From an uncultured Conexibacteraceae bacterium (GTDB lineage Bacteria > Actinomycetota > Thermoleophilia > Solirubrobacterales > Solirubrobacteraceae), in NCBI GenBank assembly GCA_963761675.1, contig CAVXIA010000015.1, forward strand, positions 62,054 through 86,053: 24,000 nucleotides of DNA, given 5' to 3'. Below, one piece after another: positions 1-18,927 of the stretch. The notes beneath the pieces were generated by a model. The model made no database searches. It saw only the letters and a list, made by a program, of their open reading frames with translations, and was not told the DNA's origin. Every line of letters begins with the position of its first letter. Positions within the stretch are counted from its first letter, which is position 1. Made by a program: the position numbers and the translations under genes.

Positions 1-1337
1 CGCTGTTCCTCGCGGAGACCCCGGATCTCGCACTGACGGCGGTGGTCGCGTTGCGGGGCGAGCTCGTGCTTCTGCAGACGCTGGCCCAGGAGACCGGTTG
101 CGTCAGATGGCGAGCACTGGCAGATTGGTGGCGCGCAACGGCATGGCCGGAGCGTGAGCTGCTCGAACGCGATGATCGAGCCCAGATCGATCGGTGCTTG
201 GAGGGCCACAGCCTGACCAGGCCGGACGCGGATCTGATCGACCGATCGGTGTCCGGGCTCGACGTGTTCGCGATTCCCTATGGGCCCGTGAGATCCGGGA
301 TCTTTGAGGCGATCCAGTTTCAGATCGAGACCGGCGGCGAGGACATCACACACCTGCAGACCCGGCCGTTTTTCAAGCACCGCGGCATCGAAGCACGCTT
401 CACCGGTATGGACCCGGAGAACGCCGTGATCGTCGCCGAGCGTGTGGCGGGGATCGCCAGCAACGCCTACGCAAGCGCTTTCTCGGAGGCCGTGGAGCGG
501 GTGGCGGGCGTGAGCGCGCCCCGCCGTGCGCAGCGCTGGCGCGCGGTCTATTGCGAGCTCGAACGGATGGCCTGCCACCTGGACGTGATCGCCAAGGAGG
601 CGGAGACCACGGCGCTGTACGTCGGGCAGGCGCGGTTCCAGATTCTCAAGGAGAGCGTGCAACGGATACGGGCTCAATTGACGGGCAGCCGGTTCGGACG
701 AGGCATGATCGTTCCGGGTGGTGTTCGGGCCGAAGGTGAGCTGAGTCTCGAAGACCTGAGCACGGGGCTTGACGCGCTCGCACGCGATCTGCGACGTGAC
801 TGCCGCATGTTCCTGGGTACCCCGTCGATGACAGATCGCCTGATCGGCAGCGGTCGTCTTGACCGCGCGGTGACAGAGGAGCGGTGCGCTGTGGGTCCGC
901 TCGCACGCGGCTCGGGGATATCCACTGACGCGAGACACGAGCGCCCATACGGTGCGTACGCGCGCCTGGGGGTGCGGGTGATGACCGATCGTGGCGGTGA
1001 CGCGATGGCCAGAATGAGCGTCCGGTTCGCTGAACTATTCGAGTCGCTCCGCCTTGTGCGCCAGACGACGGAGCAGCTTCGCCGCCACGATGGTGAGCTC
1101 CTCGCCGCGATCCCTGAGCACCTCACCGGCACGGCGTGCGGCTGGGCCGAGGCGCCGCAGGGCGAGCTGGTGTTCTGGGTGGAGATGCGGAACGGCGCCG
1201 TGCACCGCGTGCACATCGCTTCACCATCGCTGCGGAACTGGGCGCTGTTCGATGGCGCGTTCCCGAATGATGTGCTGACCGACTTTGCGTTCATAGAGCA
1301 CAGCTTCGGTCTCACCCCCGCGGGAGCTGATCGCTGA
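1..1337 (+). CDS. HycE/NuoC-NuoD-like [NiFe]-hydrogenase large-subunit homolog lacking the Ni-Fe cysteine ligands (5' partial; the frame is open to the window edge)
   Basis: The frame of ORF 42..1337 stays open back to nt 3. A NuoC-like 'AWPERELLERD' segment is followed by NuoD/HycE motifs: 'GPVRSGIFEAIQFQIETGGEDI', 'FFKHRGIE', 'AVGPLARGSGISTDARHERPYGAY', 'AEAPQGELVFWV' and 'IASPSLRNW'. The L1 position reads 'AERVAGIASNAYA' and the C-terminus reads 'FIEHSFGLTPAGADR', so neither has the cysteines. Confidence 0.8.
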   Translation, partial: LFLAETPDLALTAVVALRGELVLLQTLAQETGCVRWRALADWWRATAWPERELLERDDRAQIDRCLEGHSLTRPDADLIDRSVSGLDVFAIPYGPVRSGIFEAIQFQIETGGEDITHLQTRPFFKHRGIEARFTGMDPENAVIVAERVAGIASNAYASAFSEAVERVAGVSAPRRAQRWRAVYCELERMACHLDVIAKEAETTALYVGQARFQILKESVQRIRAQLTGSRFGRGMIVPGGVRAEGELSLEDLSTGLDALARDLRRDCRMFLGTPSMTDRLIGSGRLDRAVTEERCAVGPLARGSGISTDARHERPYGAYARLGVRVMTDRGGDAMARMSVRFAELFESLRLVRQTTEQLRRHDGELLAAIPEHLTGTACGWAEAPQGELVFWVEMRNGAVHRVHIASPSLRNWALFDGAFPNDVLTDFAFIEHSFGLTPAGADR

Positions 1338-1960
1338 TGCTCGAGTGGATCTACCGCGGCCTCAGCAAAGGCCGGATCACAACCACCTACCCACACCGGG
1401 CAGAACACGGCCCCGCTGGCTTCGAGGGCACTGTCGAGATCCTGGCAGCGGGCGAGCGCGAGCGCGCCGCGACCGCGTGCTCTGAGGGGGCGATCGTCGT
1501 GATCGGGGATCCCGCCCGACTCTCGAGTGATGCCTCCGGCCTGCGCCGCTCGATTCATGTGCGCCACATCGACTGCGGTTCCGACGGGTCGGAGGAGTGG
1601 GAGATACATGCGTTGTGGAACCCGCATTACGACATCCAGCGACTGGGGTTCTTCCTCACCAACGCCCCTCGGCACGCCGACGTTCTGTTGGTGACGGGAC
1701 CCGTCACCACACCGTTGCGAGAACCGCTTCGGCGCACCTGGGAGGTCATGCCCGCGCCGAAGGCGCTGATCGCCGTCGGCGACGACGCCTGCGGCATCGG
1801 GTTGCATGCGGACAGAGCAGGCGGGCTGACGGCCGGAGGCGTCGACGGTGTCCTGACAGTCGACGTATATGTGCCCGGCACGCCGCCACCGCCGATCATG
1901 ATCATGCAGGGACTACTGCTTGCAGCCGGCGTTCACACCCCAAGGCAGGTGGCAGCATGA
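1337..1960 (+). CDS. HycG/NuoB-like small-subunit homolog with an N-terminal HycF-like stub; Fe-S ligands largely substituted
   Basis: 'SIHVRHIDCGSDGSEEWEIHALWNPHYDIQRLGF..APRHADVLLVTGPVT', 'KALIAVGDDACGIG', 'GGVDGVLTVDVYVPGTPPPP' are collinear with NuoB/HycG motifs. The N-terminal 'GLSKGRITTTYPHRAEHGPAGFEG' resembles the HycF/NuoI N-terminus. The start overlaps the upstream stop (TGATG at 1335-1339). Confidence 0.8.
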   Translation: MLEWIYRGLSKGRITTTYPHRAEHGPAGFEGTVEILAAGERERAATACSEGAIVVIGDPARLSSDASGLRRSIHVRHIDCGSDGSEEWEIHALWNPHYDIQRLGFFLTNAPRHADVLLVTGPVTTPLREPLRRTWEVMPAPKALIAVGDDACGIGLHADRAGGLTAGGVDGVLTVDVYVPGTPPPPIMIMQGLLLAAGVHTPRQVAA

Positions 1961-3936
1961 ACGTCCTTTTTGCCATCGGAATGAGCCTGCTCGCGCTGGC
2001 CATACCGGTGGCCTGGATATCGCCTTCGACCGCCGGCCCCAGGCTGGGTTCGATCTGCTCGGCGGCCGGCTGTCTGCTGCTTGTAGCTGTTGGGCTTGCG
2101 GCCGCGCTCGGGCGCAGCGAGCCGGTTGTGAATCTCGGATCATGGATCGGGTTCGGTCACAGCGCACTTCGAGCCGACGGACTCGCCGGCATCTTTCTCG
2201 CGCTCACGGGGATCACCGGCGCTGCCGTATCGCTTGCCTACGCTGAGCTACCGGCTGGGAAATGGCTGACGATGCTCTCGAGCGCTCTGATTCTGTTCGT
2301 GGTGGTCGCGATCGGATCAGACAACGGGTTTCTGTTCTTCCTTGCCTGGGAGGCGATCACCGTCTGCGTGTACCTGATTGCAAGCGCCGGCCGCACACAC
2401 GAGGATCTGGTCGGCGGTTACCTGACGGGCGGGCTGGCGAAGCTCGGCGGTGCCGCCCTGCTGGCCGCGTTCGGGTTGCTCTACGGGCATACGCACAGCT
2501 TCTCCCTCGAGGTCTGGCGGCACGCGCACCTCTCCGCGGGAACGCGCGACCTGCTGTTCGCGCTATTCCTCAGCTGCTTCGCGACGAAGGTCGGAGTCCT
2601 TCCGTTGCAGGGCGGACTCCCCGCCGGATACGGGTCGGCCCCGCGGCTCGGGGCCGCGTCATTGTCGGTCGCGTTGTGTGCGGGGTTCTACGGACTCTGG
2701 CGATTCACGTTCGACGTGCTTGGCCCCCTGCCGACGGGATGCGGAGATGCGCTGCTGATCATCGCCTCCCTCACCGCGGTCACGGGGGTCACATACGCGC
2801 TGACACAGAATGACATGCGCGGATTCCTCGGCTACTCGACGGTCGAGCACGCCGGCGTGGCATTGGTCGGATTCGCGGTCGCGCTGCTCGGGCATGCGGC
2901 GCACCAGCCGAAGCTCGCCGCCATCGGCCTTCTCGCGTGCACGCTCCAGGTCTGCGCGCACAACCTCTCAAAGACGCTGTCGCTGATCAGCATCGACCGT
3001 GTGATCTATGCGACTGGAAGGCGAACGATCGACCCTCTCGGCGGGATCTCGCGACTACTGCCGGTCACAGCGGCAACATCCGGGGTCGCCGCGCTCACGC
3101 TGGCCGCGATCCCGCCTCTGGGCGGGTTTGTCAGCGAATGGTTCACGTTCGAGGCGCTGTTGCAGGGCTTCCGCATGCCGACACTGCTGGCACGCTTGCT
3201 CTGCGCTCTGGCGGCGGCGATCCTGGCCTTGACCGCCGGGCTCGGGTTGCTCGCTTTTGCGAAGTACTACGGCTTCGTCTTCCTCGGTCGCGCGCGTGAA
3301 AACCTTGGTGAGGTGCGTGAGCCTTCGAGATGGCCGCTTGGGGCGGGGGCCCTGGCGGTGGTGGTCCTGTTCCTGGGTGCGGCTGCGCCGTGGGAGATAC
3401 ATGTGATCGGAGCTGGCCTGCGCCCTCTGCTCGGATTTGATCTTTCCGCGAGCACGATCAGTCACCCGCTCGTTCTCGGGCCGGTGTTCCAGAACTTCTC
3501 GGTCCTGGACCCAACCTGGCTATGTGTCGTGCTGCCGTGTTATGCGATCGTCGCCGCGACGATCGCCTTCGGCGCGGACAGGCGTCGCGGCGCGCGCCGC
3601 GCCCCGGTCTGGGTGACCGGCAGCGGCGCTGAGCTCGCGGCCGTGCAATACCGGCCGTCGGCGTACTCGAACCCCATGCGCGTGATCCTTCGGGGCCCGC
3701 TCGGTTTCCGACGCCGTCTGTCACCCGTCGCCGGCGACGGCGCCGTGGGGCACCTCGTGCTCGAAACCCGGGTCGTCTTGGTCATCGACCGTTACCTCTA
3801 TCGACCGGCCGCCACGGTTGCGTTGCGGATTGCCGAGCGCGTACGCGCCACCCAATCCGGACGGCTGTCCGTCTATCTGCTGTACATGCTGACGGCCCTG
3901 CTGATCGCCCTGTCCCTCGTCCCCATTCTGCACTGA
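1957..3936 (+). CDS. HycC/HyfB/NuoL-type antiporter-like membrane subunit (proton-conducting membrane transporter family)
   Basis: Polytopic hydrophobic protein of 659 aa from ATG 1957 (ATGA overlap with the upstream stop). 'GFLFFLAWEAITVCVYLI', 'LGGAALLAAFGLLYG' and 'GLWRF' are typical of NuoL/M/N-like subunits. The C-terminal 'VWVTGSGAELAAVQYRPSAYSNPMRVIL' resembles the HycC/HyfB tail. The track ORF start at 1597 is an R-rich off-gene leader. Confidence 0.85.
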   Translation: MNVLFAIGMSLLALAIPVAWISPSTAGPRLGSICSAAGCLLLVAVGLAAALGRSEPVVNLGSWIGFGHSALRADGLAGIFLALTGITGAAVSLAYAELPAGKWLTMLSSALILFVVVAIGSDNGFLFFLAWEAITVCVYLIASAGRTHEDLVGGYLTGGLAKLGGAALLAAFGLLYGHTHSFSLEVWRHAHLSAGTRDLLFALFLSCFATKVGVLPLQGGLPAGYGSAPRLGAASLSVALCAGFYGLWRFTFDVLGPLPTGCGDALLIIASLTAVTGVTYALTQNDMRGFLGYSTVEHAGVALVGFAVALLGHAAHQPKLAAIGLLACTLQVCAHNLSKTLSLISIDRVIYATGRRTIDPLGGISRLLPVTAATSGVAALTLAAIPPLGGFVSEWFTFEALLQGFRMPTLLARLLCALAAAILALTAGLGLLAFAKYYGFVFLGRARENLGEVREPSRWPLGAGALAVVVLFLGAAAPWEIHVIGAGLRPLLGFDLSASTISHPLVLGPVFQNFSVLDPTWLCVVLPCYAIVAATIAFGADRRRGARRAPVWVTGSGAELAAVQYRPSAYSNPMRVILRGPLGFRRRLSPVAGDGAVGHLVLETRVVLVIDRYLYRPAATVALRIAERVRATQSGRLSVYLLYMLTALLIALSLVPILH

Positions 3937-4376
3937 TGTTTCAACGAATCCTGCTCGCTTGGGACGGCTCCGACATCGCCCAGCGCGCCCTCGACGTGGC
4001 CATCGACGTCACCCGCCGTTACGACGCCGAGCTCGTTGCCGTCGCCATCGCATACTCGCCCGCACACGCCGAGACCAAGGCCGACCGCGAGGAGACGGCC
4101 GACGCTGCACACCGGTACCTCAGTCGTACCTTCGACGAGGTTGCCGACCGTGCGCAACGCGCCGGTGTCGATGTCTCCCTCGAGATCATCGACGGAGACA
4201 GCCCCGCCCGCGCGCTCCTCGATTACGCGCACCGGCACGCATTTGACCTGATCGTGTGCGGGCACCACCACAGCGGCCGCGCCGGTCGTCTGCTGCTCAA
4301 GGGTGTAGCCCCCGAGCTGATCGAGGATGGCTGCCCGACGCTGGTCGTGGGCGATGAGGACCCCCTGGCGCCTTGA
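3936..4376 (+). CDS. Universal stress protein (UspA family)
   Basis: 'ILLAWDGSDIAQRALDVAIDV....AELVAVAI', 'DLIVCGHHHSGRAGRLLLKGVAPELIEDGCPTLVV' gives the typical USP architecture. The ATG overlaps the upstream stop (TGATG at 3934-3938). Confidence 0.8.
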   Translation: MFQRILLAWDGSDIAQRALDVAIDVTRRYDAELVAVAIAYSPAHAETKADREETADAAHRYLSRTFDEVADRAQRAGVDVSLEIIDGDSPARALLDYAHRHAFDLIVCGHHHSGRAGRLLLKGVAPELIEDGCPTLVVGDEDPLAP

Positions 4377-5452
4377 ACGACGATTGCCTCAAACTCACGA
4401 CGTACTTCGGGGAGCGGGACCGAACCGACCGCGGTCTCCTGGCCGACGACCTCATGGCCGTCTACGGCGACCATCACGTGGCGGCCGGCATCCTTCTACG
4501 GGGTGCAGAAGGATTCGGCCGGCTCCACCACCTGCACACCGACCGGCTTCTGACGCTGTCCGAAGATCTCCCGGTTGTCTCGATCGCCGTCGACGAGCGC
4601 GCCCGCATCGAGCTGCTGCTGCAAGAGCTGCTTCAAATCAAGCGTCGCGGGCTCATAACCCTTGAACGGGCGCGGCTGTTGTCCGGAGAGATAAGGCAGG
4701 TGCAGCTGCCCGATGAGTTTGGGGAGGCCACGAAGCTGACGGTCTATCTCGGACGCCAGGATCGCGCAGGTGACGCTCCGGCCTACGTTGCGCTCTGTGA
4801 CCTCATGTACCGCCGCGGCCTGGCTGGGGCGAGTGTCTTTCTCGGCGTCGACGGCACGCGTGGCGGCCGTCGAGCGCGCGCGAGGTTGTTCGCTCGCAAC
4901 GCCGATGTACCGATGATGCTGATCGCCGTCGGGTCCGGAGAAGGGATCGCAGAGGTGCTTCCGGAGCTTGGCGGACTGCTCCACGCGCCCCTGATGACAC
5001 TGGAGCGGGTGCGGGTCTGCAAGCGCGACGGCGAGCTGCTCGCAAAGCCGCATGAGCTGCCGGCGACGGACGAGCATGGCCTGGGGATGTGGCAGAAGCT
5101 CATGATCTACACGTCGAACGTCGCGGCGCAACATGACCGCCCTTTGCATATGGAGATCATCCACCGGCTGCAGGCCGAAACCGAGGCAGCCGGCGCCACC
5201 GTGCTACGCGGGATGTGGGGCTACCACGGCGACCATGCGCCACACGGCGACCGCCTTTTGCAGGTCCGACGTCACGTGCCAGTCTGCACGATCGTCATCG
5301 ACCGTCCTGATCGGATCGCTCGGTCGTTTCAGATCATCGACGAGATCACCGCAACGCACGGCCTCGTGACAAGCGAGATGGTTCCGGCGGCACGGGCCAT
5401 GAGCGAAGCTCACATGCGCGGCGGTCTGCGGCTCGCCAGACATCGGTTCTGA
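4373..5452 (+). CDS. Protein with three tandem DUF190 (COG1993, PII-like) domains
   Basis: Three internal repeats of about 105-115 aa each begin with a 'KLT(T/V)Y' or 'KLMIY' strand. Each contains an 'A(G/A)xxLRG..G(F/Y)G' or 'GASVFLGVDG' segment and ends with a 'L(I/M)TLER' or 'LVTSEM' strand, the DUF190 pattern. The TTG start overlaps the USP stop (TTGA at 4373-4376). Confidence 0.75.
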   Translation: MNDDCLKLTTYFGERDRTDRGLLADDLMAVYGDHHVAAGILLRGAEGFGRLHHLHTDRLLTLSEDLPVVSIAVDERARIELLLQELLQIKRRGLITLERARLLSGEIRQVQLPDEFGEATKLTVYLGRQDRAGDAPAYVALCDLMYRRGLAGASVFLGVDGTRGGRRARARLFARNADVPMMLIAVGSGEGIAEVLPELGGLLHAPLMTLERVRVCKRDGELLAKPHELPATDEHGLGMWQKLMIYTSNVAAQHDRPLHMEIIHRLQAETEAAGATVLRGMWGYHGDHAPHGDRLLQVRRHVPVCTIVIDRPDRIARSFQIIDEITATHGLVTSEMVPAARAMSEAHMRGGLRLARHRF

Positions 5453-5483: not shown

Positions 5484-5891
5484 ATGGCGATGACCTTGCG
5501 GACCAGCGGAATCAGGCAGCCGAGCATCTGGGCGAGCGTCGTCAGCCACGACGCGCCCGGGTTGCGCGGCTGGCTGCTTGCACTCGGATTCACACAGGAT
5601 CTGATGATCCCAGGGGAGAGCGAGGGTTCGATCCACCACTGCCAACTCGATTGGCCCGAGGGTGGTCGTGTGCTGCTCTCGAGCACCGACGAGCGTCCAA
5701 CCCCCTGCCGGCCCGGTACCAGCTCGCTGCACGTCGTCACCGCAGACCCTGACGCCGTGATGGCTCGCGCAGTCTCGCTGGGAGCGGTTGTGATTCACCC
5801 ACTCACCGATCAGACCGACTACCCGTCACGCGACTGCACGATCGCGGACCCTGACGGGAATCATTGGACATTCGCGACCTTCGCCGGATGA
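5484..5891 (+). CDS. VOC (glyoxalase/bleomycin-resistance/dioxygenase) family protein
   Basis: Size of 135 aa, with 'LRGWLLALGFTQD' near the N-terminus and a C-terminal 'DYPSRDCTIADPDGNHWTFA', the pattern typical of small VOC-fold proteins. Confidence 0.65.
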   Translation: MAMTLRTSGIRQPSIWASVVSHDAPGLRGWLLALGFTQDLMIPGESEGSIHHCQLDWPEGGRVLLSSTDERPTPCRPGTSSLHVVTADPDAVMARAVSLGAVVIHPLTDQTDYPSRDCTIADPDGNHWTFATFAG

Positions 5892-7048
5892 GGCCGAGCC
5901 CTGCTGCCAGCTCGCGCTCGTCTGTCGGCATGGTCGGCGCCGGACAGCTTGCCCGGATGGCCTGGCAGGCCGCGATCTCGCTGGATCTCGAGCTGGTCTG
6001 CCTCGGTGCGCAGGGCGATGCCGCCGCGCGGGCCGGGGTTTCGCTGCTTGAGGGGTCGGGTCGGGACGGATCGGCCCTGGGCGTGCTTGCGAAGCATTGC
6101 GATGTGCTGACGTTCGAGCATGAACTCGTGGACCTCGCGGCTGTGGCTGGGCTGGAGGCTGGAGGAACGCCGGTGCGCCCCTCCAGCGCGGCGCTGGAGC
6201 TGGCCGTGGACAAGCTCCGGCAGCGGAGGACATTGTCGGACTTGGATGGGGTTGCTGTTCCGGCACACGCTTCCGCCGGCGCCGTCACCGACGTCCACGC
6301 CTTCGCCGCGGCGCATGGATGGCCAGTGGTTCTGAAGGCGCGCAGTGGTGGGTACGACGGTCGAGGCGTCTGGATGTGCATCGACCGGAGGGATGCCGAA
6401 GCGGCCTTCGCCGAGGCGACCACGGCCGGCCTCGAACTCTACGTCGAGGAGGCGGTTGAACTCGCTCAGGAGCTTGCCGTCATCGTCGCACGCTCACCCT
6501 CGGGTGATCTAGCCGTTTACGCACCGGTCGAGACCCAACAGGTCGATGGCATGTGCCGCTCGGTGCTGATGCCGGCCGGAATCCCGGAGACGATGGCCCT
6601 GGAGGTCGAGAACCTGGCGCGGACGCTCGCCGAGCACATCCGGCTGGAGGGGCTCATGGCCGTTGAGCTGTTCGTGACGCGCGATCGTCGTCTGCTGGTG
6701 AACGAACTGGCTCTGCGGACCCACAACACGGGACACCTTCACACCGAGGCCTCCGTCACCTCGCAGTTCGAGCAGCACCTGCGCGCGGTCCTCGACCTGC
6801 CCCTCGGGCTCACGACCCCGGTCGCGGCGGCGGCCGCGATGGTCAACGTGGTGGGACCGCGTGACGGTTCGGACCCGGCATCGCGCTTGGCGGACGCGCT
6901 GAGCGTACCGGGGGCCCGTGTGCATCTTTACGGCAAGAGCGCACGGCCCGGACGCAAGCTCGGGCATGTCACGGTCTGCGCCGACACGCCTGAGGAGGCG
7001 CTTGCTCGGGCGCGGGAGGCAGCCGATAGGCTGGAGCGGGATGTCTGA
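5888..7048 (+). CDS. purK: N5-carboxyaminoimidazole ribonucleotide synthase
   Basis: '[12 protein letters not shown]', 'VLTFEHE', '[19 protein letters not shown]', '[11 protein letters not shown]', 'GRKLGHVTV' form the ATP-grasp PurK signature, and the gene sits next to purE. ATG 5888 forms an ATGA overlap with the VOC stop. ATG 5930 is an alternative start. Confidence 0.9.
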
Positions 7049-7556
7049 ACCGATCGTCGGCGTGGTCATGGGGTCTGACAGCGACCTGAGCGTCATGAGC
7101 CAGGCCACCGCAGTGCTCGATGACCTCGGTGTGCCCGTGGAAACGCGGGTGGTGTCGGCCCACCGCACCCCGGTCGAGATGATCGCCTACGGACAGCAGG
7201 CTGAGGCGCGGGGTCTGGCCGTGATCATCGCCGGCGCCGGTGGCGCGGCTCACCTTCCCGGGATGCTGGCCGCGGTCACCTGCCTGCCGGTGATCGGTGT
7301 ACCTGTGTCGCTCAAGAATCTCGATGGGCTGGACAGTCTGTTGTCGATCGTGCAGATGCCCAAGGGCGTTCCGGTCGCGACCGTCGCCATTGACGGTGCT
7401 CGTAACGCCGGACTGCTGGCCGCCAGGATCCTCGCGGTGCGGGACCTCGATCTGCGCGAGCGGCTGCGTGGTTTCGCCGACGCACAGGCCCAGGCCGCAC
7501 TTGAGGCCGACGCGCGGGTCCGGCAAGGGGAGACCTTCCCGCGGAAAGGTTCTTGA
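7041..7556 (+). CDS. purE: N5-CAIR mutase (class I PurE)
   Basis: '[14 protein letters not shown]', 'VVSAHRTP', '[15 protein letters not shown]', 'PVIGVPV', '[16 protein letters not shown]'. The ATG at 7041 overlaps the purK end by 8 nt. Confidence 0.92.
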
Positions 7557-7982: not shown

Positions 7983-8990
7983 TCATCGGGCGGAGTCCCT
8001 GACGACCAGCTCAGCGGGAAGCGATGTGCTGGTGATGGCACCCGTCTGCACGCGCTGAACCACGCCATCGGCGAGCAGTCGGCCGGCGAGCATCGCGTCC
8101 TGGCGAATCGTTGTCAGCGACGGCTTGACGTGGGCCGCGAGTGGCACATCGTCGTAGCCGACCACCGCGATGTCTCCCGGGACGCTGCGGCCGCTGTCGG
8201 CGATCACCTCCATCGCGGCGATCGCCATGACGTCGCTGTTCACGAACACCCCGTCGATCTCGGGTGCGCTGTCGAGCAACTCCGCCATTGCGACGCGGGC
8301 CGAGCCCTCCGACCACGCGGTGTGGGTGATCAAACCGGGATCCGGTGTGCGTCCGGCTGCCGCAAGGGCGGCCTCGTAGCCGCGCTGCCTCTCGGCGACC
8401 TCAGCCGCGTGCTTGGGGCCGCCGAGAAACGCGACCTTCTGGCGCCCGATGCCCAGCAGGTGCTCGGTCGCAAGGCGGCCTCCGCGGACGCTGTCGCCGC
8501 TGACTGAACAGAAGGAGCCATCGGAAGATGGCTGTCCCCAGACGATGAAGGGTGCGTCGGCGTCCCGCAGGGCGCGCATCTGCTGACGCGTGCACTGTGC
8601 CTCGAGCATGATGAAGCCGTCGGCGCGCCCGGTTTCCAGGTAGCGGCGCGGCCAGGAGACGTCGCTGGGCCCGACGTGAATCATCAGCAGGTCGTAATCG
8701 CTCCTGCCGAGTCCGGCGGAGATCCCGGTCATAAGTTCGAGCATGAAGGCGTCTGGCACGACGCTGCCGGCCTTGTAGCCGTAGGCGACCAGCGCGATCG
8801 CCCCACTCTGCTGGAGGCTCAAGCGGCGGGCCCGAGCGTCGACCTCGAAGCCGTGCTCCTTGGCGATGGCGCGCACCAACTCCTTTGTCTCAACGCTGAT
8901 CACGGGGCTGTCGTTGAGCGCCCGCGACACGGTGGATTTGGAGACCCCGGCCAGGCGGGCGATGTCGGCTATAGAGTTCACGCTCGCCAT
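7983..8990 (-). CDS. LacI family transcriptional regulator
   Basis: N-terminal HTH 'SIADIARLAGVSKSTVSRALNDSPVISVETKELVRAIAKEHGFEVDARARRL' followed by a periplasmic-binding-protein-like sugar-binding core ('IALVAYG', 'DGFIM', 'VAFLGGP', 'DIAVVGYDD'). Start is either ATG 8990 or ATG 9005. The track start at 9032 is less likely. Confidence 0.9.
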   Translation of the reverse strand: MASVNSIADIARLAGVSKSTVSRALNDSPVISVETKELVRAIAKEHGFEVDARARRLSLQQSGAIALVAYGYKAGSVVPDAFMLELMTGISAGLGRSDYDLLMIHVGPSDVSWPRRYLETGRADGFIMLEAQCTRQQMRALRDADAPFIVWGQPSSDGSFCSVSGDSVRGGRLATEHLLGIGRQKVAFLGGPKHAAEVAERQRGYEAALAAAGRTPDPGLITHTAWSEGSARVAMAELLDSAPEIDGVFVNSDVMAIAAMEVIADSGRSVPGDIAVVGYDDVPLAAHVKPSLTTIRQDAMLAGRLLADGVVQRVQTGAITSTSLPAELVVRDSAR

Positions 8991-9004
8991 TGCAACCGGT
9001 TGCA
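8991..9004. promoter_or_regulatory. LacI-family operator-like perfect palindrome TGCAACCGGTTGCA (copy 2; probable autoregulatory site)
   Basis: Identical 14-mer directly abutting ATG 8990 and overlapping ATG 9005 of the LacI-family gene. Confidence 0.6.
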
Positions 9005-9261
9005 TGGTACCGCCAATCGCGGCGGACGGCAACCGGCCACGGTGCGCCGCGGCAAATCAGCGCCCGACGGCAACCTGCGAGGGCTGCCTCGTGGGAAATC
9101 CCTTCCGGGCCTGGCGCGGATACCTCTCCAGGTCTCTGCTGGTGGAGTCTGCGGACGGGTGTCTCGCGCCGGCGGGCTGGGGCGGTCGATGGCCCCCGGT
9201 AGTGCGGCACGGCCTTCCCGGCCTCTCCGGGCGCGAGCGGGGCTTGGTGTGAGGGCGCTAT

Positions 9262-11477: not shown

Positions 11478-12272
11478 TCAGCTGGTCAGATGGACCGCGG
11501 CCTCCGGTGTGGCCACGTGGAAACTGAAGCTCTCCTGGAGGTAGAGGTTGACCTGCTCGGCATCGTGTGAGTCGTAGCCCAATGAGATGTCCTGGCCGCT
11601 GTCGAAGAGGAAGTCACCGCCGCGGCGGCTGAGCAGCACAGCGCCCTCGATGCCGGGAACCCACACGATCGGGCCTCCGAGCAGCAGTGACACGTGTTCT
11701 CTGAGCGGGTAACCGCCCGGCACGGGAGCGGTGCCCAGCAACCGGTAGTGATCCTGGCCGGCACCGAGTGCGTACGGTCCGTCGACTCCCGATCCGAGCA
11801 GCAATTCGATCGCCGCCGTCACACGTTCTGCGTAGTTCTCCGCTTTGATGCGCTTCAGCATCGCGTGCGGGGTGGCCGCGATCACCCCGTTGAACGTTCC
11901 GGCCCAGCCGCCGAAGACGGCGTCACCTTCGGCCCGTGCGATCTCGCGAGCGGCGGTGTCGAGCGGACCCAGATCGGCATCGTCGGCGCCGCGATCGACG
12001 TCCTGGAGCTCGCTTCGCGAAAGGCTGAAATCGGCGCGGAGCTCGATCAGCGGCAGGACGCGTCGTCGCAGCGCAGTCACCCCTTCGGGGCTGCCTTCGA
12101 TCGCCTCGACCCGCCCAAGGTTCGTCGATGAGTGTGACCAACCGCGAGGGCCGTCGAAGTCGACCAGCTTGCGCGCACCCAGAGCCGGGGTCAGGCGCTC
12201 GCGGGCCTCGTGGTCGAGCAGCTCCCAGCCGGCATCGCTGATCGGCGCGTGCGAACGAAGCAGATGATTCAC
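11478..12272 (-). CDS. Family 1 encapsulin nanocompartment shell protein (linocin M18-like)
   Basis: At 264 aa it is collinear with mycobacterial Cfp29-type encapsulin: 'LLRSHAPISDAGWELLDHEA', 'LIELRADFSLSRSELQDVDRGADDADL', 'GVDGPYAL', 'GYPLREHV', 'SRRGGDF', 'LGYDSHD...VNLYLQESFSF'. A GTG start sits in a GTGA overlap with the DyP stop. The SD GAGAGGAG lies 7 nt upstream. Confidence 0.92.
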   Translation of the reverse strand: MNHLLRSHAPISDAGWELLDHEARERLTPALGARKLVDFDGPRGWSHSSTNLGRVEAIEGSPEGVTALRRRVLPLIELRADFSLSRSELQDVDRGADDADLGPLDTAAREIARAEGDAVFGGWAGTFNGVIAATPHAMLKRIKAENYAERVTAAIELLLGSGVDGPYALGAGQDHYRLLGTAPVPGGYPLREHVSLLLGGPIVWVPGIEGAVLLSRRGGDFLFDSGQDISLGYDSHDAEQVNLYLQESFSFHVATPEAAVHLTS

Positions 12273-13282
12273 GCTGATGCTCCTCTCAGACCGCCGATCC
12301 CCAGCGATCCGTCGTGGTTTGTCGTCTCAGGTTCGATGACGGCGGCGCTCGGCTCGAGCGGGGGATCTGCCATGCCCGCGAGCTGATCCGTGGTGGGCAC
12401 GAAGAACAGTGTTCCCGTCACGGCGGTGGAGTAGTCGAGCACGCGGTCGTGATTGCCGGGCGGGTTGCCGATGAACATGTTGCGCAGCATCTGTTCGATC
12501 ACGCCCGGGTCAGACGCGTAGCCGATGAAATACGTGCCGAACTCGCCTGCCCCAACGCGGCCGAAGGGCATGTTGAAACGCACGATCTCGAGCTCCTCTC
12601 CGGTCTCATCGACGATCGTGTTGAGTGCGACGTGCGAGTTCGATGGCTTGACGTCGTCAGGCAGCTCGATATCGCTGAGCTTCGTGCGTCCGATCACGCG
12701 CTCCTGTTCCTCGACCGAAAGGGAGTCCCAGGCCGCCAGGTCGTGCAGGTACTTCTGGACGATCACGTAACTGCCCCCGGCGAACCCCGGATCCTCGGCG
12801 CCGATCGTGACCGCGGTCCTCGCCGCTTCGCCCTCCGGGTTCTCGGTGCCGTCGACGAAGCCGAGCAGGTCGCGCTCGTCGAACGAGCGGAATCCATGGA
12901 CCTCGTCGACGATTCGGACCAGCCCGCCCAGCCGTTCGGCGATCCGCTGCGCGAGCTCGAAGCAGAGATCAAGCCGGCGCGCACGGATGTGGAAAAGGAG
13001 ATCGCCCGGGGTGGAGGCCGCCGTGTGGGCTGCGCCGGAGAGCGGGACGAAGCGATGCAGCCCCAGCGGCTTCGGGCACAGAGGGCCCAGGCGATCCCAG
13101 AGGTCTGAGCCGATCCCCACCACGCAGCTGAGGCACGCCTCGGGGATGCGGAAGCCGACGGAGCGCTTGAGACCGGGAATGTCGGCGAGCGCGTCACGGA
13201 GCTGATCCTCGTCACCGGCCGGGGCGATCATCACGAGAAAGATCGCCGCCTCCGTCGATGGTTGAAGGATCGTCTGCTGCAT
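12269..13282 (-). CDS. DyP-type (dye-decolorizing) peroxidase carrying a C-terminal encapsulin targeting peptide
   Basis: 'AAIFLV', 'GFVDGTENP', 'GGSYVIVQKYLHDL', 'SHVAL', 'IVRFNMPFG', 'GTYFIGY' are DyP motifs. A flexible P/A/E linker is followed by 'DGSLGIGGLRG'. Start is ATG 13282 (MQQTILQP...) or GTG 13315. Confidence 0.9.
   Translation of the reverse strand: MQQTILQPSTEAAIFLVMIAPAGDEDQLRDALADIPGLKRSVGFRIPEACLSCVVGIGSDLWDRLGPLCPKPLGLHRFVPLSGAAHTAASTPGDLLFHIRARRLDLCFELAQRIAERLGGLVRIVDEVHGFRSFDERDLLGFVDGTENPEGEAARTAVTIGAEDPGFAGGSYVIVQKYLHDLAAWDSLSVEEQERVIGRTKLSDIELPDDVKPSNSHVALNTIVDETGEELEIVRFNMPFGRVGAGEFGTYFIGYASDPGVIEQMLRNMFIGNPPGNHDRVLDYSTAVTGTLFFVPTTDQLAGMADPPLEPSAAVIEPETTNHDGSLGIGGLRGASA
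12272..12313 (-). other. Encapsulin cargo-loading (targeting) peptide at the DyP C-terminus
   Basis: The last 14 codons encode DGSLGIGGLRGASA, matching the SLxIGSLKG-type targeting peptide consensus of DyP cargo proteins. Confidence 0.8.
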
Positions 13283-13438
13283 CACGCTCGCGCCCGTCTC
13301 GTCGCTCACTCGCACTCACTGTAAGACTTCGCGGCGATCGACGGCAACGCTGGGGGAGGATTCTGGCTGACATCGAATCAGTACAGCCGGGGCCGCGCCC
13401 AGTCCTGAGCGCCCGTCGGCGCCTGCTTACATGGAGAC

Positions 13439-14632
13439 ATGGCCAGATATCGGTCCGTGCTCACGGCGCCGGGCTGCTTCCGGCTGCTGAGCACCGCACT
13501 CCTGGGACGACTGCCACAGGGCATGTCGGCGCTTGCCGTGCTCCTGCTCGTGCGCGACACCACGCACTCCTACGCGGCTGCGGGCATCGCCGTGGGAGCG
13601 AACGCGTTGGCCACCGCCGCCGCCGCGCCGGTGCTTGGTCGGATGGTCGACCGCGTGGGCCGGCGGTGGGTCGTGGGACCGGCCGCTCTGCTGCAGGGCG
13701 CCGTATACATCCTGCTGGCACTGGCAGCAGATGCAGACGCGCCCACGCTCGCATTGGTCGCATGCTCGGCATTGGCGGGGGCGCTGACGCCGCCGATCGC
13801 ACCGGTCGTGAGGACGCTGCTGCGCGACGTGTTCGACGAGCCCTCGGTGCGTGAAACGGCCTACGCACTCGAAGCGATCGCCCAAGAGACGATTTGGGTC
13901 GTCGGTCCACTGCTGGTGACGGTGATCATCACCACGTTCTCGCCAAAGGCCGCCGTGCTGACGCTCAGCGTCATCGGCGTACTGGGGACACTCCTGTTCC
14001 TGCGCTCGCCGCTGCTCGACGCTGTGCCGGAGCACGAGCACCAGCACCGGCACGCCGGCTCCGCCCTGGGGAGCATCGACCTGCGCTGGCTGTTGATGCC
14101 GGTGACCCTGATGGGCTTCGGGCTGGGCGCCGTCGAGGTTGGAATTCCGGCCCTGGCATTGCAGAACGGCTCGCAGGCGGCGTCCGGCTACCTGCTCGCG
14201 CTGTGGAGTCTCGGCAGCATGGCCGGCGGAATTCGATACAGCACTACACATTGGCGATCGCCCTTGGGCTCCCGATACTGCATGCTCCTGCTGCTGGACT
14301 GTGGCGTGACGATCCCGCTGCTGGCGGCCAACTCGATCGCCGCCGCCGGAGTCGCCAGTTTCATCGCCGGACTGGCGGTGGCCCCGGTGTTCTCCTGTCA
14401 GTACCTGCTGGTCGGTCAGGTGGTACTACCCGGAACCGAGCACGAGGCCTTCAGCTGGTTGCTGTCAGGTCTGATCGGCGGGCTAGCGGCCGGCTCTGCC
14501 CTGGGCGGCGTGATCATCGGGCCGCTGGGCGTGCGCGCACCGTTCGTGATCGCCTGTGTGGCCGCAGCCCTCGCAGCCGCGAGCGCGACTCGCTTCCGAG
14601 GCCGATTCGCCGCGGGCGTAGCTCTCGCCTGA
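13439..14632 (+). CDS. MFS transporter
   Basis: About 12 hydrophobic segments. The loop motif 'GRMVDRVGRRWVV' between TM2 and TM3 is the MFS signature (G-x-x-x-D-R-x-G-R-R). Confidence 0.85.
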   Translation: MARYRSVLTAPGCFRLLSTALLGRLPQGMSALAVLLLVRDTTHSYAAAGIAVGANALATAAAAPVLGRMVDRVGRRWVVGPAALLQGAVYILLALAADADAPTLALVACSALAGALTPPIAPVVRTLLRDVFDEPSVRETAYALEAIAQETIWVVGPLLVTVIITTFSPKAAVLTLSVIGVLGTLLFLRSPLLDAVPEHEHQHRHAGSALGSIDLRWLLMPVTLMGFGLGAVEVGIPALALQNGSQAASGYLLALWSLGSMAGGIRYSTTHWRSPLGSRYCMLLLLDCGVTIPLLAANSIAAAGVASFIAGLAVAPVFSCQYLLVGQVVLPGTEHEAFSWLLSGLIGGLAAGSALGGVIIGPLGVRAPFVIACVAAALAAASATRFRGRFAAGVALA

Positions 14633-14947
14633 GGCGTCGGGCTCGTCAAGCATCGCCATCAGCTTGGTGATCACGAAGCCGAGGCAGCCGATCTCCACGA
14701 CGAGAGTCGCGCCGACCAGCCAATAGGACGGCGACAGCGCAAGCGCGATGATCCCCGCGATCACCAGCAGCATCGGCATGCCGACGCCATAGATCAGCCT
14801 GAGATCGCTCCCGAGGGCGCGATCGAGTCGAGTGTCGAGCCGCCTCAGCGGGTCAATCTGATGGCCGCTGCCTGTAGTGCGCGATTGGTTGGTGTCTGCC
14901 CTCGGGCGCTGCGCCGGGGTCGCCGGTTGGGGTATGGCCACCTGCAT
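14483..14947 (-). CDS. Hypothetical small membrane protein (two TM helices)
   Basis: ATG 14947 is preceded by GAGGAGG with 5-nt spacing. The hydrophobic core reads 'GVGMPMLLVIAGIIALALSPSYWLVGATLVVEIGCLGFVI'. The ORF has no stop until 14483, so it overlaps the MFS 3' end. Confidence 0.5.
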   Translation of the reverse strand: MQVAIPQPATPAQRPRADTNQSRTTGSGHQIDPLRRLDTRLDRALGSDLRLIYGVGMPMLLVIAGIIALALSPSYWLVGATLVVEIGCLGFVITKLMAMLDEPDASGESYARGESASEASRARGCEGCGHTGDHERCAHAQRPDDHAAQGRAGR

Positions 14948-15123: not shown

Positions 15124-15546
15124 TCAGGAGAGTTCGGGCGGCAGCGCTCGGGGACCGTCGGGGTAGAGCTCCGTGATCATCTCGGGGGTCATTGCGCGCG
15201 TGTCGGCGCCCTCGAGCGGCGCGCCGACAACGAGCCAGAGCGCGGGCACGGCGGTGTCATTGAAGACCTGGCGCAGGCTCTGCGGCTCCACCAGCAGCGC
15301 GGACAATGGCTCGAGCGTCAGCAGCTCTTCGTCAACGCGAATGCGGCCGGTGCCCTCCAGAACGACATACAGCTCGTGTTGGGTGCGGTGCCGGTGGCGG
15401 GTGTTGGCTTGCCCTGGCTCCAGTCTCCACAGTCGCGCGCCGAGTGTCTCTGCTCCGAGCTGCTGGGCCAGGTCGGTGTTGGCTACCCCCATCTGGTTTG
15501 AGGGGCGCCAGAAGGCGTCTCGGGAATTCAGGACGCGAAATCCCAT
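15124..15546 (-). CDS. Cupin domain protein
   Basis: 'LWRLEPGQANTRHRHRTQHELYVVLEGTGRIRVDEE...L' is the cupin motif 1/2 pattern; 140 aa. Confidence 0.75.
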   Translation of the reverse strand: MGFRVLNSRDAFWRPSNQMGVANTDLAQQLGAETLGARLWRLEPGQANTRHRHRTQHELYVVLEGTGRIRVDEELLTLEPLSALLVEPQSLRQVFNDTAVPALWLVVGAPLEGADTRAMTPEMITELYPDGPRALPPELS

Positions 15547-15558
15547 GGCGAGATTCTA

Positions 15559-16476
15559 TTGGTCGCCCGAGTCCAGCTGCCACGGCTACCTGTCCCGTCC
15601 GAACAGCTCTCCAAACTGAACGGATGCCATGCCCGGGCGTCGGTGATCACACTGCAGTCAAAGCGGCTTCCTGAGCCACGACGAGTTGCGCCGCCGTCGC
15701 TGCGGGTCGGCCTGATCGGACTCGTGGGGGGTCTGCTCGCGGCTCTGGTTGGAGGCGCCGACGGGTTCTGGCTCTGCCTCCCGGCCGGGCTGTTGGCCGC
15801 GGCCGTCGCTCATACCAGCCGCGGTGGGCTGTGGAGCGCCGTGCCGGTGTGGCTGATCGGCGCCGCGGCGGCCGCAGCAGTTCAGCGCGGCGTGATGCCG
15901 CCGCTGTGGCTGGCGGTGCTCGTGCCGTGCGCCTGCCTGTCCGTGACCCTGGGCACCGGGGGACGCCTGCGACGCGAGCGCGACGCGCTGCGGGACGCCG
16001 CTCTCAGCGACCCGCTCACGGGGCTGGCCAACCGCCGCATGCTCATGTCGATGGCCGAGTACGAGATCGCTCGGCACCACCGAGCCGATGGCCGGTTCAC
16101 CGTCGTGATGTTGGACCTCGACGGGTTCAAGCCGCTCAACGACCGCCACGGCCACGCCGCCGGCGATCAGATGCTGCGGGATGTCGGTGCCGCGCTGACC
16201 CGCGCGCTGCGCGCTCAGGACACCATCGCTCGATTCGGCGGAGACGAGTTCTGCGTCATCGCGCCCGAGACCGAGCACCCGCGGGTGTTGGCGGCGCGGA
16301 TCGCCGGCGCGGTGTCAGAGGCCGCCGGTGGCCTCGATTCGCTCAGCGCCAGCGTCGGCCTGGCGGTATTCCCGGAGGACGGGACGTCGATCGAGCTGCT
16401 GCTGCGTGCGGCCGATGAGCGGCTGCTGGCGGCCAAGCGGCGACTTCACGGCGACGCCGAGCGGCGAGCCGCGTAG
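15559..16476 (+). CDS. Membrane-anchored diguanylate cyclase (GGDEF domain) with an intact I-site
   Basis: 'DPLTGLANRR', 'VVMLDLDGFKPLNDRHGHAAGDQML', 'RAQDTIARFGGDEFCV'. The N-terminal region holds 3-4 TM helices. The start is uncertain (TTG 15559 or GTG 15643). Confidence 0.85.
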   Translation: MVARVQLPRLPVPSEQLSKLNGCHARASVITLQSKRLPEPRRVAPPSLRVGLIGLVGGLLAALVGGADGFWLCLPAGLLAAAVAHTSRGGLWSAVPVWLIGAAAAAAVQRGVMPPLWLAVLVPCACLSVTLGTGGRLRRERDALRDAALSDPLTGLANRRMLMSMAEYEIARHHRADGRFTVVMLDLDGFKPLNDRHGHAAGDQMLRDVGAALTRALRAQDTIARFGGDEFCVIAPETEHPRVLAARIAGAVSEAAGGLDSLSASVGLAVFPEDGTSIELLLRAADERLLAAKRRLHGDAERRAA

Positions 16477-16485
16477 CGCTGCGCG

Positions 16486-17235
16486 GTGCCGACCGTGGGC
16501 GGTGGCGATAGGCTGCGCGTCACAGTGGCGAGCGGAAGCGAGGACCTATCGGCCTGGTACGCGTCGCCGGCTCTGCACTGGCCGGTGGGCGTCGCCAACC
16601 TCGACGCCAAGCGGGCGGTCGCAGAGCGGATCGCCGCGCGCGTCGAGGACGGTGCGCTGATCGGAGTCGGATCCGGTTCGGCGACGTACATGGCGCTCTG
16701 GGCGATCGGCGAGCGCGCCAGCCGCGAGTCGCTCTCGATCCGGGTGGTGACGGCCTCCTACGAGACGGAGATGGCCGCGTTGCGGCTTGGGGTACCGACG
16801 CTGCCGCTGGGCTCGGTGCAGCCGGAGTGGGGGGTGGACGGAGCGGACGAGGTCGATCCTCACGGGCGCCTGCTCAAGGGCCGCGGTGGCGCGATGTTTC
16901 GAGAGAAGATCCTCTGGTTCACGTGCACGCGGATGTTCTTGGCGATCGATTCGAGCAAGCAGGTCGAGCGGCTGGGGCAGGGCTTTCCGGTTCCGGTGGA
17001 GGTCGACCGTGCCGCGGTGGATCTGGTCGGCCGCTGGCTTGATACCCATGGCTCCAGCTCGTGGGAACTGCGTCTTGCCGGTGGCAAGGACGGGCCCGTG
17101 CTGACCGAGTCCGGGAACCTGGTGATCGACGCCTGGTTCGATGAGATCGAGCAGGGGTTCCACGCGCGCCTGAAGGCACTCCCCGGAGTGATCGAGACCG
17201 GTCTCTTCGAGGGCTACACGTTCGAGGTCGTCTGA
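16486..17235 (+). CDS. rpiA: Ribose-5-phosphate isomerase A
   Basis: 'KRAVAERIAARVEDGALIGVGSGSAT', 'GVDGADEVD', 'LLKGRGGAMFREKI', 'FPVPVEV', 'TESGNLVID', 'LPGVIETGLF'. It has a ~35-aa N-terminal extension relative to typical RpiA, so the true start may be an internal GTG (16525 or 16585). Confidence 0.85.
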   Translation: MPTVGGGDRLRVTVASGSEDLSAWYASPALHWPVGVANLDAKRAVAERIAARVEDGALIGVGSGSATYMALWAIGERASRESLSIRVVTASYETEMAALRLGVPTLPLGSVQPEWGVDGADEVDPHGRLLKGRGGAMFREKILWFTCTRMFLAIDSSKQVERLGQGFPVPVEVDRAAVDLVGRWLDTHGSSSWELRLAGGKDGPVLTESGNLVIDAWFDEIEQGFHARLKALPGVIETGLFEGYTFEVV

Positions 17236-17258
17236 CTCGGATCGAGCGGGGCCGGGCG

Positions 17259-17669
17259 CTACTCGGACTGGCGCCCGAGAATCGCCACGAAGCGGTCGAT
17301 CCGCCGGCGCTGCTCGTCGTCCAACGGGCCGGTTGACTCGGCCAGCAGCGTCATGGGGCCGCGATCCCGCGCCCATGTGCGAGCTCGCTCGCTGAAACCG
17401 GCGGCCAGCCACACGAGCGGAAGCGAACCGGCGTAGGCGATTACGATCGCGTCTTCGAGATCGCGCGTCGACTCGGCTCTCACCACGGAGATGACGCTCT
17501 GCCCCAGATCATGAGCGACGGCGTCGATCGCGCCAAGACCCTCTGCACCCAGCAGAGCGACCTCGCCCTCGCGCAGCATGTCTCGTGCCCAACCGGCCGG
17601 GGCACCCGTCAGGGCGGAGGGCGCACAGATGAAGCGGAAGCGTGTCGCGGGCGCGGATGGTTCGGACAT
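17259..17669 (-). CDS. Hypothetical protein
   Basis: A 136-aa ORF that fills the gap between rpiA and the TauE gene and has a balanced amino-acid composition. I recognise no family. Confidence 0.45.
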   Translation of the reverse strand: MSEPSAPATRFRFICAPSALTGAPAGWARDMLREGEVALLGAEGLGAIDAVAHDLGQSVISVVRAESTRDLEDAIVIAYAGSLPLVWLAAGFSERARTWARDRGPMTLLAESTGPLDDEQRRRIDRFVAILGRQSE

Positions 17670-17792
17670 GGCCGGGAAGCTACTGGCTTGTGCATGAGAA
17701 GGTCCGTCGAACGATTCGCGTGAACGTGGATAGACTTGGTTGACCCAATCGGTTTTGTGGGGTCAGCCCGGCCCGCACCAGGCCCGTCTCAG

Positions 17793-18782: not shown

Positions 18783-18786
18783 GACG

Positions 18787-18809
18787 GCCGCCGGACTCTT
18801 CCCGGCGGC
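18787..18809 (+). terminator. Hairpin immediately after the TauE stop (terminator-like)
   Basis: GCCGCCGG (18787-18794) pairs with CCGGCGGC (18802-18809), an 8-bp perfect stem with a 7-nt loop, 4 nt after the stop. There is no T-tract. Confidence 0.4.
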
Positions 18810-18927
18810 TCCGGGCGCGGAGCGTCTAGGATCCGGTCGGCTGGATTCCCGTAACCGTCTGGGAGGCCGCGCAGTGAGCGCGAATCGAAACCTGGTTCTG
18901 ACGGCGATGGCCCGCTGAGATCGGGCC

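Follow-up and report, generated by a model that had tools for sequence, protein, structure and literature searches.

Ehr complexes combine the subunit set of group 4 hydrogenases and complex I with a large subunit lacking the NiFe cysteines (PMC6349859, PMC3569383, PMC10284858), and their function has been described as undetermined (PMC6728331; PMC10284858). They are widespread; one is the complex of the Mycobacterium tuberculosis Rv0082–87 locus. In the related Escherichia coli formate hydrogen lyase (FHL), HycG binds a [4Fe-4S] cluster through four cysteines and HycF carries two clusters. Here we describe an Ehr-type locus at the start of a 24-kb stretch of DNA (24,000 nucleotides; hereafter the window) from an uncultured Conexibacteraceae bacterium, whose small subunit has none of these: the gene at 1337–1960 on the forward strand encodes 207 residues in which, according to Pfam, alignments and a structural model, a degenerate ferredoxin remnant is fused to a NuoB/HycG-like domain without cluster ligands. 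We conclude that this small subunit is probably part of a redox-dead, fluoride-induced, ion-translocating Ehr complex.

The open reading frame (ORF) is intact and its letters match those quoted in the initial annotation of this DNA. Its ATG overlaps the stop codon of the large-subunit gene (TGATG, 1335–1339), and its own stop overlaps the ATG of the downstream HyfB-like gene (ATGA, 1957–1960); the annotated start should be the right one because the N-terminus, MLEWI.RGL..GR.TT.YP, is strongly conserved. Residues 87–194 match PF01058 (Oxidored_q6; NADH:ubiquinone oxidoreductase 20-kDa subunit) with 67.1 bits against a cut-off of 27, while NCBIfam NuoB models reach 78.6 bits on the 207-residue protein, under their cut-off of 116. 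Among solved structures, E. coli HycG ranks first (7z0s_G, E = 3e-25) and Pyrococcus furiosus MbhJ second (6cfw_J, 6.5e-24), with subunit B and NDUFS7 chains of complex I next. An AF2 model of moderate quality (pLDDT 70.5, pTM 0.72) was matched by Foldseek to 7z0s_G, 6cfw_J and complex I subunit B chains with probability 1.00, and NDUFS7 was also matched. By sequence and fold the protein is a member of PF01058, and it is predicted to adopt the flavodoxin-like NuoB fold, whose motifs are kept, as the initial annotation had noted.

What the small subunit fails to show, judged by its sequence, is the functional hallmark of the family: four cysteine ligands in the motifs CxxC (or CC), GxC and PGCPP. 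Alignment of HycG DCGGCNGCEIEI with DCGSDGSEEWEI of the query places D83 (1583–1585) and E86 (1592–1594) at the CxxC pair, within an invariant motif H-I-D-C-G-S-D-G-S-E-E-W-E (ligand pair at 1583–1594, forward strand). The third ligand position, that of G-x-C, is occupied by D150 (1784–1786): G148-D149-D150 matches G-A-C gap-free both in the family hidden Markov model alignment and in a MAFFT alignment with HycG, MbhJ, NDUFS7 and NdhK fragments, and the family consensus GTDACSGGL runs gap-free against GACGNSGGI (HycG), GACPTGGSV (MbhJ), GSCANGGGY (NDUFS7), GACTITGGM (NdhK) and GACACSGGI (canonical representatives). The pairwise phmmer alignment, like the initial annotation, puts the Cys of VGDDACGIG at the ligand position by opening a two-residue gap; the gap arises because the query has GIG for the family's SGG and carries a two-residue insertion at 158–159. 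The fourth position, in PGCPP, is T182 (1880–1882, forward strand; PGTPP), which is Ser in the majority of the family and T, K, A, L or S within the deletion subclade described below. With the third position aligned at D150, all four ligands are therefore replaced, by D83, E86, D150 and T182.

The reading of D..E for CxxC and of PGT for PGC in the initial annotation is borne out by the HycG alignment, but its surviving G-x-C cysteine is not: the ligand position is Asp150, and the conserved cysteine two residues downstream, C152 (1790–1792; the two residues span 1784–1792 on the forward strand), lies at a non-ligand position that is also Cys in 32 of the 77 canonical representatives (GACACSGG). 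That the NuoB part has no canonical cluster site stands, with a loss greater than first stated, all four ligand positions being non-cysteine.

We found the replacement residues to be fixed in the 120 closest homologues, which are 52–100% identical to the query. Position 83 is Asp and position 86 Glu in 120/120, as are E87, W88 and E89; position 150 is Asp in 118 and Glu in 2; and position 182 is Ser in 113, Thr in 3, Ala in 2, Lys in 1 and Leu in 1. Across this set 52 columns are invariant, and the four cysteines, whose retention in the closest homologues the initial annotation had named as the check on its claim, are kept in 0/120. The pattern of ligand replacement goes far beyond chance, and the replacement carboxylates are by this measure under strong purifying selection. 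Four ligand substitutions and a deletion of about 50 residues in one gene could resemble decay; yet the same motifs recur in independent assemblies with those 52 columns unchanged, the frame is intact with coupled start and stop overlaps, the deletion is common to eight cluster representatives at 69–100% identity (the query included), and an identical protein is carried on a second, 4.7-kb Logan contig. This conservation refutes the notion that the gene is decaying, defective in one strain only or a product of sequencing error, and we give that notion next to no weight.

The cluster-less form extends well beyond this family. A search of 1.84 billion representatives at 50% identity returned 3584 relatives; 77 of the nearest 150 keep all four cysteines and about 60 are without them, the list being ranked by similarity to the query, so that 77 versus about 60 is not a global proportion. 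In sequence space, the early impression that NuoB homologues without a cluster are great rarities is not supported. At positions 83, 86, 150 and 182, about 460 sampled sequences show D-E-D-S most commonly (280), then C-C-C-C (77), D-A-D-N (24), D-T-D-N (21), D-D-D-S (6) and D-I-D-D (3). Cluster-less groups comprise the Solirubrobacterales/Conexibacter family of the query, Streptosporangiaceae-type actinomycetes, Methanosarcina, Methanoregula, Methanospirillum, Bathyarchaeia and Dehalococcoidia. A rough neighbour-joining tree sets the actinobacterial cluster-less clade apart from the archaeal and Dehalococcoidia one, with cysteine-keeping lineages between them, and is too crude to separate single from repeated loss. 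In the loci that we numbered L033–L081 (Methanosarcina, Methanoregula, Methanospirillum, Bathyarchaeia, Dehalococcoidales and others), genes occur as L-H-N-LSU-SSU (LSU, large subunit; SSU, small subunit), with cluster-less small subunits (DSGSDNSTEIE / GDDACDGG / PGNPPSP) and large subunits whose C-termini are free of cysteine.

The N-terminal residues 1–68 (1337–1540, forward strand) are, by comparison with 259-residue homologues, an MbhN/NuoI/HycF-like remnant in which only C48 (1478–1480) is left; the two CxxCxxCxxxCP motifs of the HycF/NuoI/MbhN ferredoxin subunit are absent from the query N-terminus, which has this one cysteine. Most family members are long forms of about 259 residues, and residues 2–118 of these match MbhN (6cfw_N, 2.8e-8), NuoI (1e-4) and HycF (3.8e-4), as well as the NCBIfam NuoI, HycF and HyfH models below their cut-offs, supporting the suggested fusion of a HycF-like stub to the NuoB part. 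Of the first ferredoxin motif, the long forms have lost the CxxCxxC and kept the 'CP' cysteine (C48); of the second, they have lost the CP and kept the CxxCxxC. The four cysteines that remain would make up exactly one [4Fe-4S] site. In the query and seven close cluster representatives (69–76% identity), a deletion of about 50 residues takes out the remaining CxxCxxC, and this deletion subclade therefore has no intact Fe–S motif. The proposal that all Fe–S sites are gone from both parts thus holds for the query, with four NuoB ligands replaced and the ferredoxin CxxCxxC deleted.

The partner subunits place this protein in an Ehr-type complex. The large subunit (NuoC–NuoD/HycE-like; PF00346 and PF00374) occupies 3–1337 on the forward strand, with no in-frame stop upstream and its 5' end outside the window. 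When the full-length relative from locus L021 (Conexibacter sp. S30A1) is aligned to HycE (7z0s_E), RVCGIC becomes RVAGIA, and the C-terminus ...FIEHSFGLTPAGADR is without cysteine, as in the motif table for all related loci; neither NiFe motif, L1 (RxCGxC) or L2 (DPCxxC), is present, the sequences being RVAGIA and ...SFGLTPAGADR. At the position aligned to the quinone-binding Tyr of complex I, a residue that we take to be the equivalent of Tyr87 in Nqo4, the large subunit has Gly. Downstream of the small subunit, a HyfB/HycC/NuoL-type antiporter-like membrane subunit of 659 residues (1957–3936, forward strand; PF00361; HycC 7z0s_C, 1.6e-36) scores 347 bits with NCBIfam HyfB, whose cut-off is 667, and keeps the Glu of transmembrane helix (TM) 5 (WEA), the Lys of TM7 (TKVG), the HxxxK Lys of TM11 and the Glu of TM12 (SEW). 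HyfB-, HyfF-, HyfE- and NuoH-like genes are present in the related operons, all below NCBIfam equivalog cut-offs; the NuoH-like and HyfE-like subunits form a single 543-residue ORF in Solirubrobacterales (L021, 5366–6997) and two genes in L082, in what looks like a lineage-specific fusion. The missing NiFe cysteines and this subunit set make the complex Ehr-type, and the small subunit is predicted to belong to a six-subunit (Hyf-like) assembly of this kind without a canonical redox cofactor site. A genuine hydrogenase is ruled out by the missing NiFe ligands. A canonical quinone reductase is likewise ruled out, since the operon encodes no electron-input module, the small subunit lacks the N2 ligands, and at the aligned site the large subunit resembles that of a hydrogenase.

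We considered whether the complex might nevertheless still be a redox enzyme, its Asp/Glu pocket binding, perhaps with C80 and C152, a non-canonical cofactor (an Asp/Glu-ligated Fe–S cluster or mono- or dinuclear Fe/Mn) that takes electrons from a ferredoxin-type donor and passes them to the pocket of the large subunit. Cysteine conservation is in keeping with this: C48 is kept in 120/120, C80 in 116/120 and C152 in 119/120 of the Solirubrobacterales family, C152 persists in the archaeal clade (GDDACDGG), and the long forms hold one complete four-cysteine ferredoxin motif. Where E86 is hydrophobic, moreover, position 182 is sometimes Asp (DIDD, DVDD), which preserves the count of three carboxylates that a metal site would call for. 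The Streptosporangiaceae-type clade, however, carries Ala at position 80 and Val at 152 and still retains D-E-D-S; the query subclade is without any ferredoxin cluster motif; the large subunit has neither NiFe ligands nor the quinone-binding Tyr, with Gly in its place; and no electron-donor subunit is encoded in the operon. We know of no Fe–S cluster with mostly carboxylate ligands, which we also count against this explanation. Taken together, we regard a surviving redox enzyme as very unlikely.

The operon itself offers a different kind of clue. The window holds its last five genes, namely the partial large subunit, the small subunit, the HyfB-like subunit, a universal stress protein (USP; 3936–4376, forward strand, overlapping the HyfB-like gene by 1 nucleotide) and a triple DUF190 protein (4373–5452, forward strand, overlapping the USP gene by 4 nucleotides), with start and stop codons overlapping throughout. 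Almost every related locus has a USP gene after the Ehr genes, and about 30 Solirubrobacterales loci share the order H-N-LSU-SSU-L-USP. The DUF190 protein (COG1993, PII-like) has three PF02641 domains, with matches to TM0021 and PH1503; the single chain may be a covalent pseudo-trimer, the fold being normally trimeric, and it is conserved downstream of Ehr–USP(–CrcB) in many loci. The complete L021 operon encodes NuoH/HyfE-like and HyfF-like subunits, the large subunit, the ferredoxin–NuoB fusion, the HyfB-like subunit, USP, CrcB and triple DUF190, and contains no electron-input genes (formate dehydrogenase, HycB or NuoEFG-type); L085, whose small subunit is 76% identical to the query and belongs to its deletion subclade, likewise has only the membrane-, large- and small-subunit genes, USP, CrcB and DUF190. 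In L021 the USP gene (12744–13193) overlaps crcB (13190–13585; PF02537, 1e-25) by 4 nucleotides. We found crcB after USP in 11 loci, lying between the USP and DUF190 genes in one or two copies. L085 runs from NuoH to the HyfB-like gene and on through USP, two small ORFs, two crcB genes and the triple DUF190 gene with abutting coordinates. In all, crcB is present in L021, L085 and ten further loci. Comparing 3936–5452 of the window with 12606–15456 of L085, USP is followed directly by DUF190 in the former, while ORFs of 100 and 93 residues and the two crcB genes stand between them in the latter; the genome of the window has lost these four genes or holds them elsewhere.

Fluoride riboswitches accompany these operons in actinobacteria. 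Rfam scans placed RF01734 at or above its gathering score in 14 of 28 actinobacterial loci, and about 50 strong hits in 611 kb of such loci compare with none in the 49 archaeal and Dehalococcoidia Ehr loci (782 kb). In two Streptosporangiaceae-type loci, a riboswitch reaching the gathering score lies in the Ehr leader itself (L082, 5124–5190, with the first gene at 5229; L084, 4875–4943). A model built from hits and a motif search revealed a variant aptamer in 27 loci, 24 of Solirubrobacterales together with L085, L087 and L088, where it lies 20–45 nucleotides ahead of the first Ehr gene (alignment A5; for example L021 5225–5353, L002 5262–5373 and L085 about 5190–5330). Its P1 and loop read YCAG-AUGGAGUC-CUGR, followed by a variable hairpin inserted between P1 and the linker, by P3 and a pseudoknot strand (GAACCGCCC...GGGCUGAUGGCUCC), and by an expression platform in which an anti-Shine–Dalgarno (anti-SD) strand pairs with the SD (CUCCUUUCGC...GCGAAAGGAG) before the start codon. 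Of the cells in A5, 92.6% are paired. The outer pair of P1 alternates between U-A (10) and C-G (6), compensatory changes are seen at each of the six pairs in the inserted hairpin, and the observed covariation score was matched by 0/500 shuffles. Being under the RF01734 gathering score, the variant is missed by standard annotation. Weinberg et al. (2010; PMC2864571) reported crcB-motif RNAs in 5' untranslated regions of 'formate hydrogen lyase' genes, which were plausibly this kind of cofactor-less Ehr operon.

The association could be one of mere neighbourhood, in which case the complex would serve salt or pH homeostasis as a general Na+(K+)/H+ antiporter of the Mrp kind, its cluster-less small subunit a purely structural relic, and would have no specific part in fluoride stress. 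Its antiporter-like residues are intact, many canonical riboswitches are oriented away from the Ehr genes, with MutS_V, FTHFS, PAP2 or USP genes under their control, and both the window, which is without crcB, and the archaeal and Dehalococcoidia loci would fit. Against this, the riboswitch sits in the Ehr 5' leader of L082 and L084 and its variant in 27 further loci, crcB is translationally coupled inside the operon, and the association is present in two separate actinobacterial lineages; we therefore consider mere neighbourhood unlikely.

The conserved cluster-less state, together with the crcB and riboswitch operon of relatives, points to a non-redox part in the response to fluoride or acid stress, and we favour the reading given at the outset, a fluoride-induced, ion-translocating complex without redox chemistry. 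The peripheral arm would be retained as an assembly and coupling module instead of an electron wire, with the conserved carboxylates filling the former cluster pocket as a hard-cation site or a protonatable network. Because three buried carboxylates need counter-charge, D83/E86/D150 probably hold Mg2+ or Ca2+ or else form a protonatable network; the D-I-D-D and D-V-D-D variants, in which one of three acidic residues has shifted to position 182, fit a metal site. The complex may translocate H+ or another cation without redox input, in principle as Mrp does, a role that we infer from the charged residues retained by the HyfB-like subunit (Glu in TM5 and TM12, Lys in TM7 and TM11). HF entry and F− exit through Fluc impose a proton load and depolarisation on the cell. 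Fluoride would induce the operon, and the complex would counter this load and depolarisation, helping to restore pH and ion homeostasis as Fluc channels export F−. A bolder version, which we hold to be quite unlikely, is that the [4Fe-4S] pocket has been rebuilt as a tri-carboxylate site (D83/E86/D150) for a hard cation (Mg2+/Ca2+, possibly a metal–fluoride complex) or as a buried pH sensor, ion or proton binding switching the peripheral arm so that the whole would be a ligand-gated, complex-I-like translocator for fluoride and acid stress.

Several points weigh against a fluoride-induced, redox-dead translocator. Ion transport and a metal in the pocket are predicted features, and the long-form relatives hold one intact [4Fe-4S] motif in the ferredoxin domain, where a redox or sensing role is possible. 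The variant aptamer scores only 15.6 bits in L021 against the RF01734 gathering score of 34, and its fluoride binding is predicted; its pseudoknot (99.3% paired) and anti-SD helix (99.6% paired) are almost invariant and so fit the model while giving no covariation support. The archaeal and Dehalococcoidia cluster-less loci have no fluoride riboswitch, crcB, USP or DUF190 gene nearby; with no fluoride link in these relatives, fluoride biology alone does not explain cluster loss. Within the 24-kb window there is no crcB, the USP gene being followed directly by DUF190, and no riboswitch at gathering score, the operon leader lying upstream of position 1 and outside the window. As the window starts inside the large subunit and has no crcB, the fluoride link for this genome is drawn from its relatives and from the USP and DUF190 genes that are coupled to its Ehr genes.

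Genes with their own fluoride riboswitches surround the Ehr operons. Beyond the Ehr leaders, RF01734 riboswitches precede MutS_V pairs and enolase, FTHFS, PAP2, DUF6062, USP, NUDIX and MFS genes. Pairs of MutS domain V proteins (about 500 residues each) run from canonical fluoride riboswitches, divergent from or beside the Ehr operon (L019 909–4205, L004 236–3373, L082 14657–17799). L084 has a dynamin-like GTPase gene (12850–14589) after the Ehr operon with its own fluoride riboswitch at 12773–12835 (forward strand), and L082 has a counterpart gene at 12924–14633. In L085, tandem fluoride riboswitches (15502–15563 and 15685–15761, forward strand) lie upstream of 15961–18831, where a Gpr1/Fun34/YaaH-family gene (acetate/succinate channel-like) is joined by one for acetyl-CoA synthetase. 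Elsewhere in the window, purK and purE (N5-CAIR synthase and mutase; 5864–7556, forward strand) and a LacI-family regulator (7983–9032, reverse strand) form a housekeeping context unrelated to the Ehr finding, and an encapsulin shell protein (Linocin_M18, 7.7e-71) is encoded directly downstream of a DyP-type peroxidase, a classic encapsulin cargo pair (11478–13315, reverse strand).

Across the open-access Ehr literature, which leaves out Marreiros 2013, Coppi 2005 and Pereira 2011, we found no description of complete small-subunit cluster loss, the D-E-D-S replacement, a fused ferredoxin remnant or fluoride control. The conserved cluster loss, the ferredoxin remnant and its deletion, the insertion-variant riboswitch and the union of the operon with crcB, USP and DUF190 therefore appear to be undescribed, within a literature that did not extend to key Ehr and fluoride papers. 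These loci indicate that complex I/hydrogenase architecture can persist under strong purifying selection without a canonical redox-cofactor site in the peripheral arm, which must therefore serve beyond electron transfer. The Asp/Glu/Asp replacement serves as a natural experiment on the part of the N2 site in coupling, and the operon link to fluoride riboswitches and Fluc channels supplies a concrete candidate inducer and phenotype, with Conexibacter sp. S30A1 as a cultured host.

Among known systems, the locus is closest to Ehr (Geobacter EhrA–D/L/S and the M. tuberculosis 'hyc' locus, Rv0082–Rv0087), sharing its NuoH-, HyfE-, HyfF-, NuoCD-, NuoB- and HyfB-like subunit set and a large subunit without NiFe cysteines; the open-access literature, however, defines Ehr by the large subunit alone. 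The E. coli FHL (7Z0S) and Hyf (hydrogenase 4) provide the best match for the small, large and antiporter-like (HycC/HyfB) subunits, and the ferredoxin remnant aligns to HycF, but the query complex has no NiFe site, unites the HycF and HycG counterparts in one chain, and has no FdhF or HycB partners encoded. In the P. furiosus membrane-bound hydrogenase MBH (6CFW), MbhJ is the second-best match for the NuoB domain and MbhN the best for the long-form N-terminus; that enzyme is ferredoxin-driven and proton-reducing, with three [4Fe-4S] clusters and a NiFe site. The fluoride-riboswitch regulon (RF01734; CrcB/Fluc) is represented by canonical aptamers upstream of related operons and by crcB, enolase, MutS_V, USP, PAP2 and NUDIX neighbours, whereas the leader of the query's own family is a variant with an extra hairpin that falls below the Rfam threshold. 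The Mrp Na+/H+ antiporter has no NuoB, NuoD or NuoH homologues, and we claim functional analogy with it, not membership; it draws on the same antiporter-like subunit family (PF00361; hits 7qru_A and 7d3u_A) and functions without redox chemistry.

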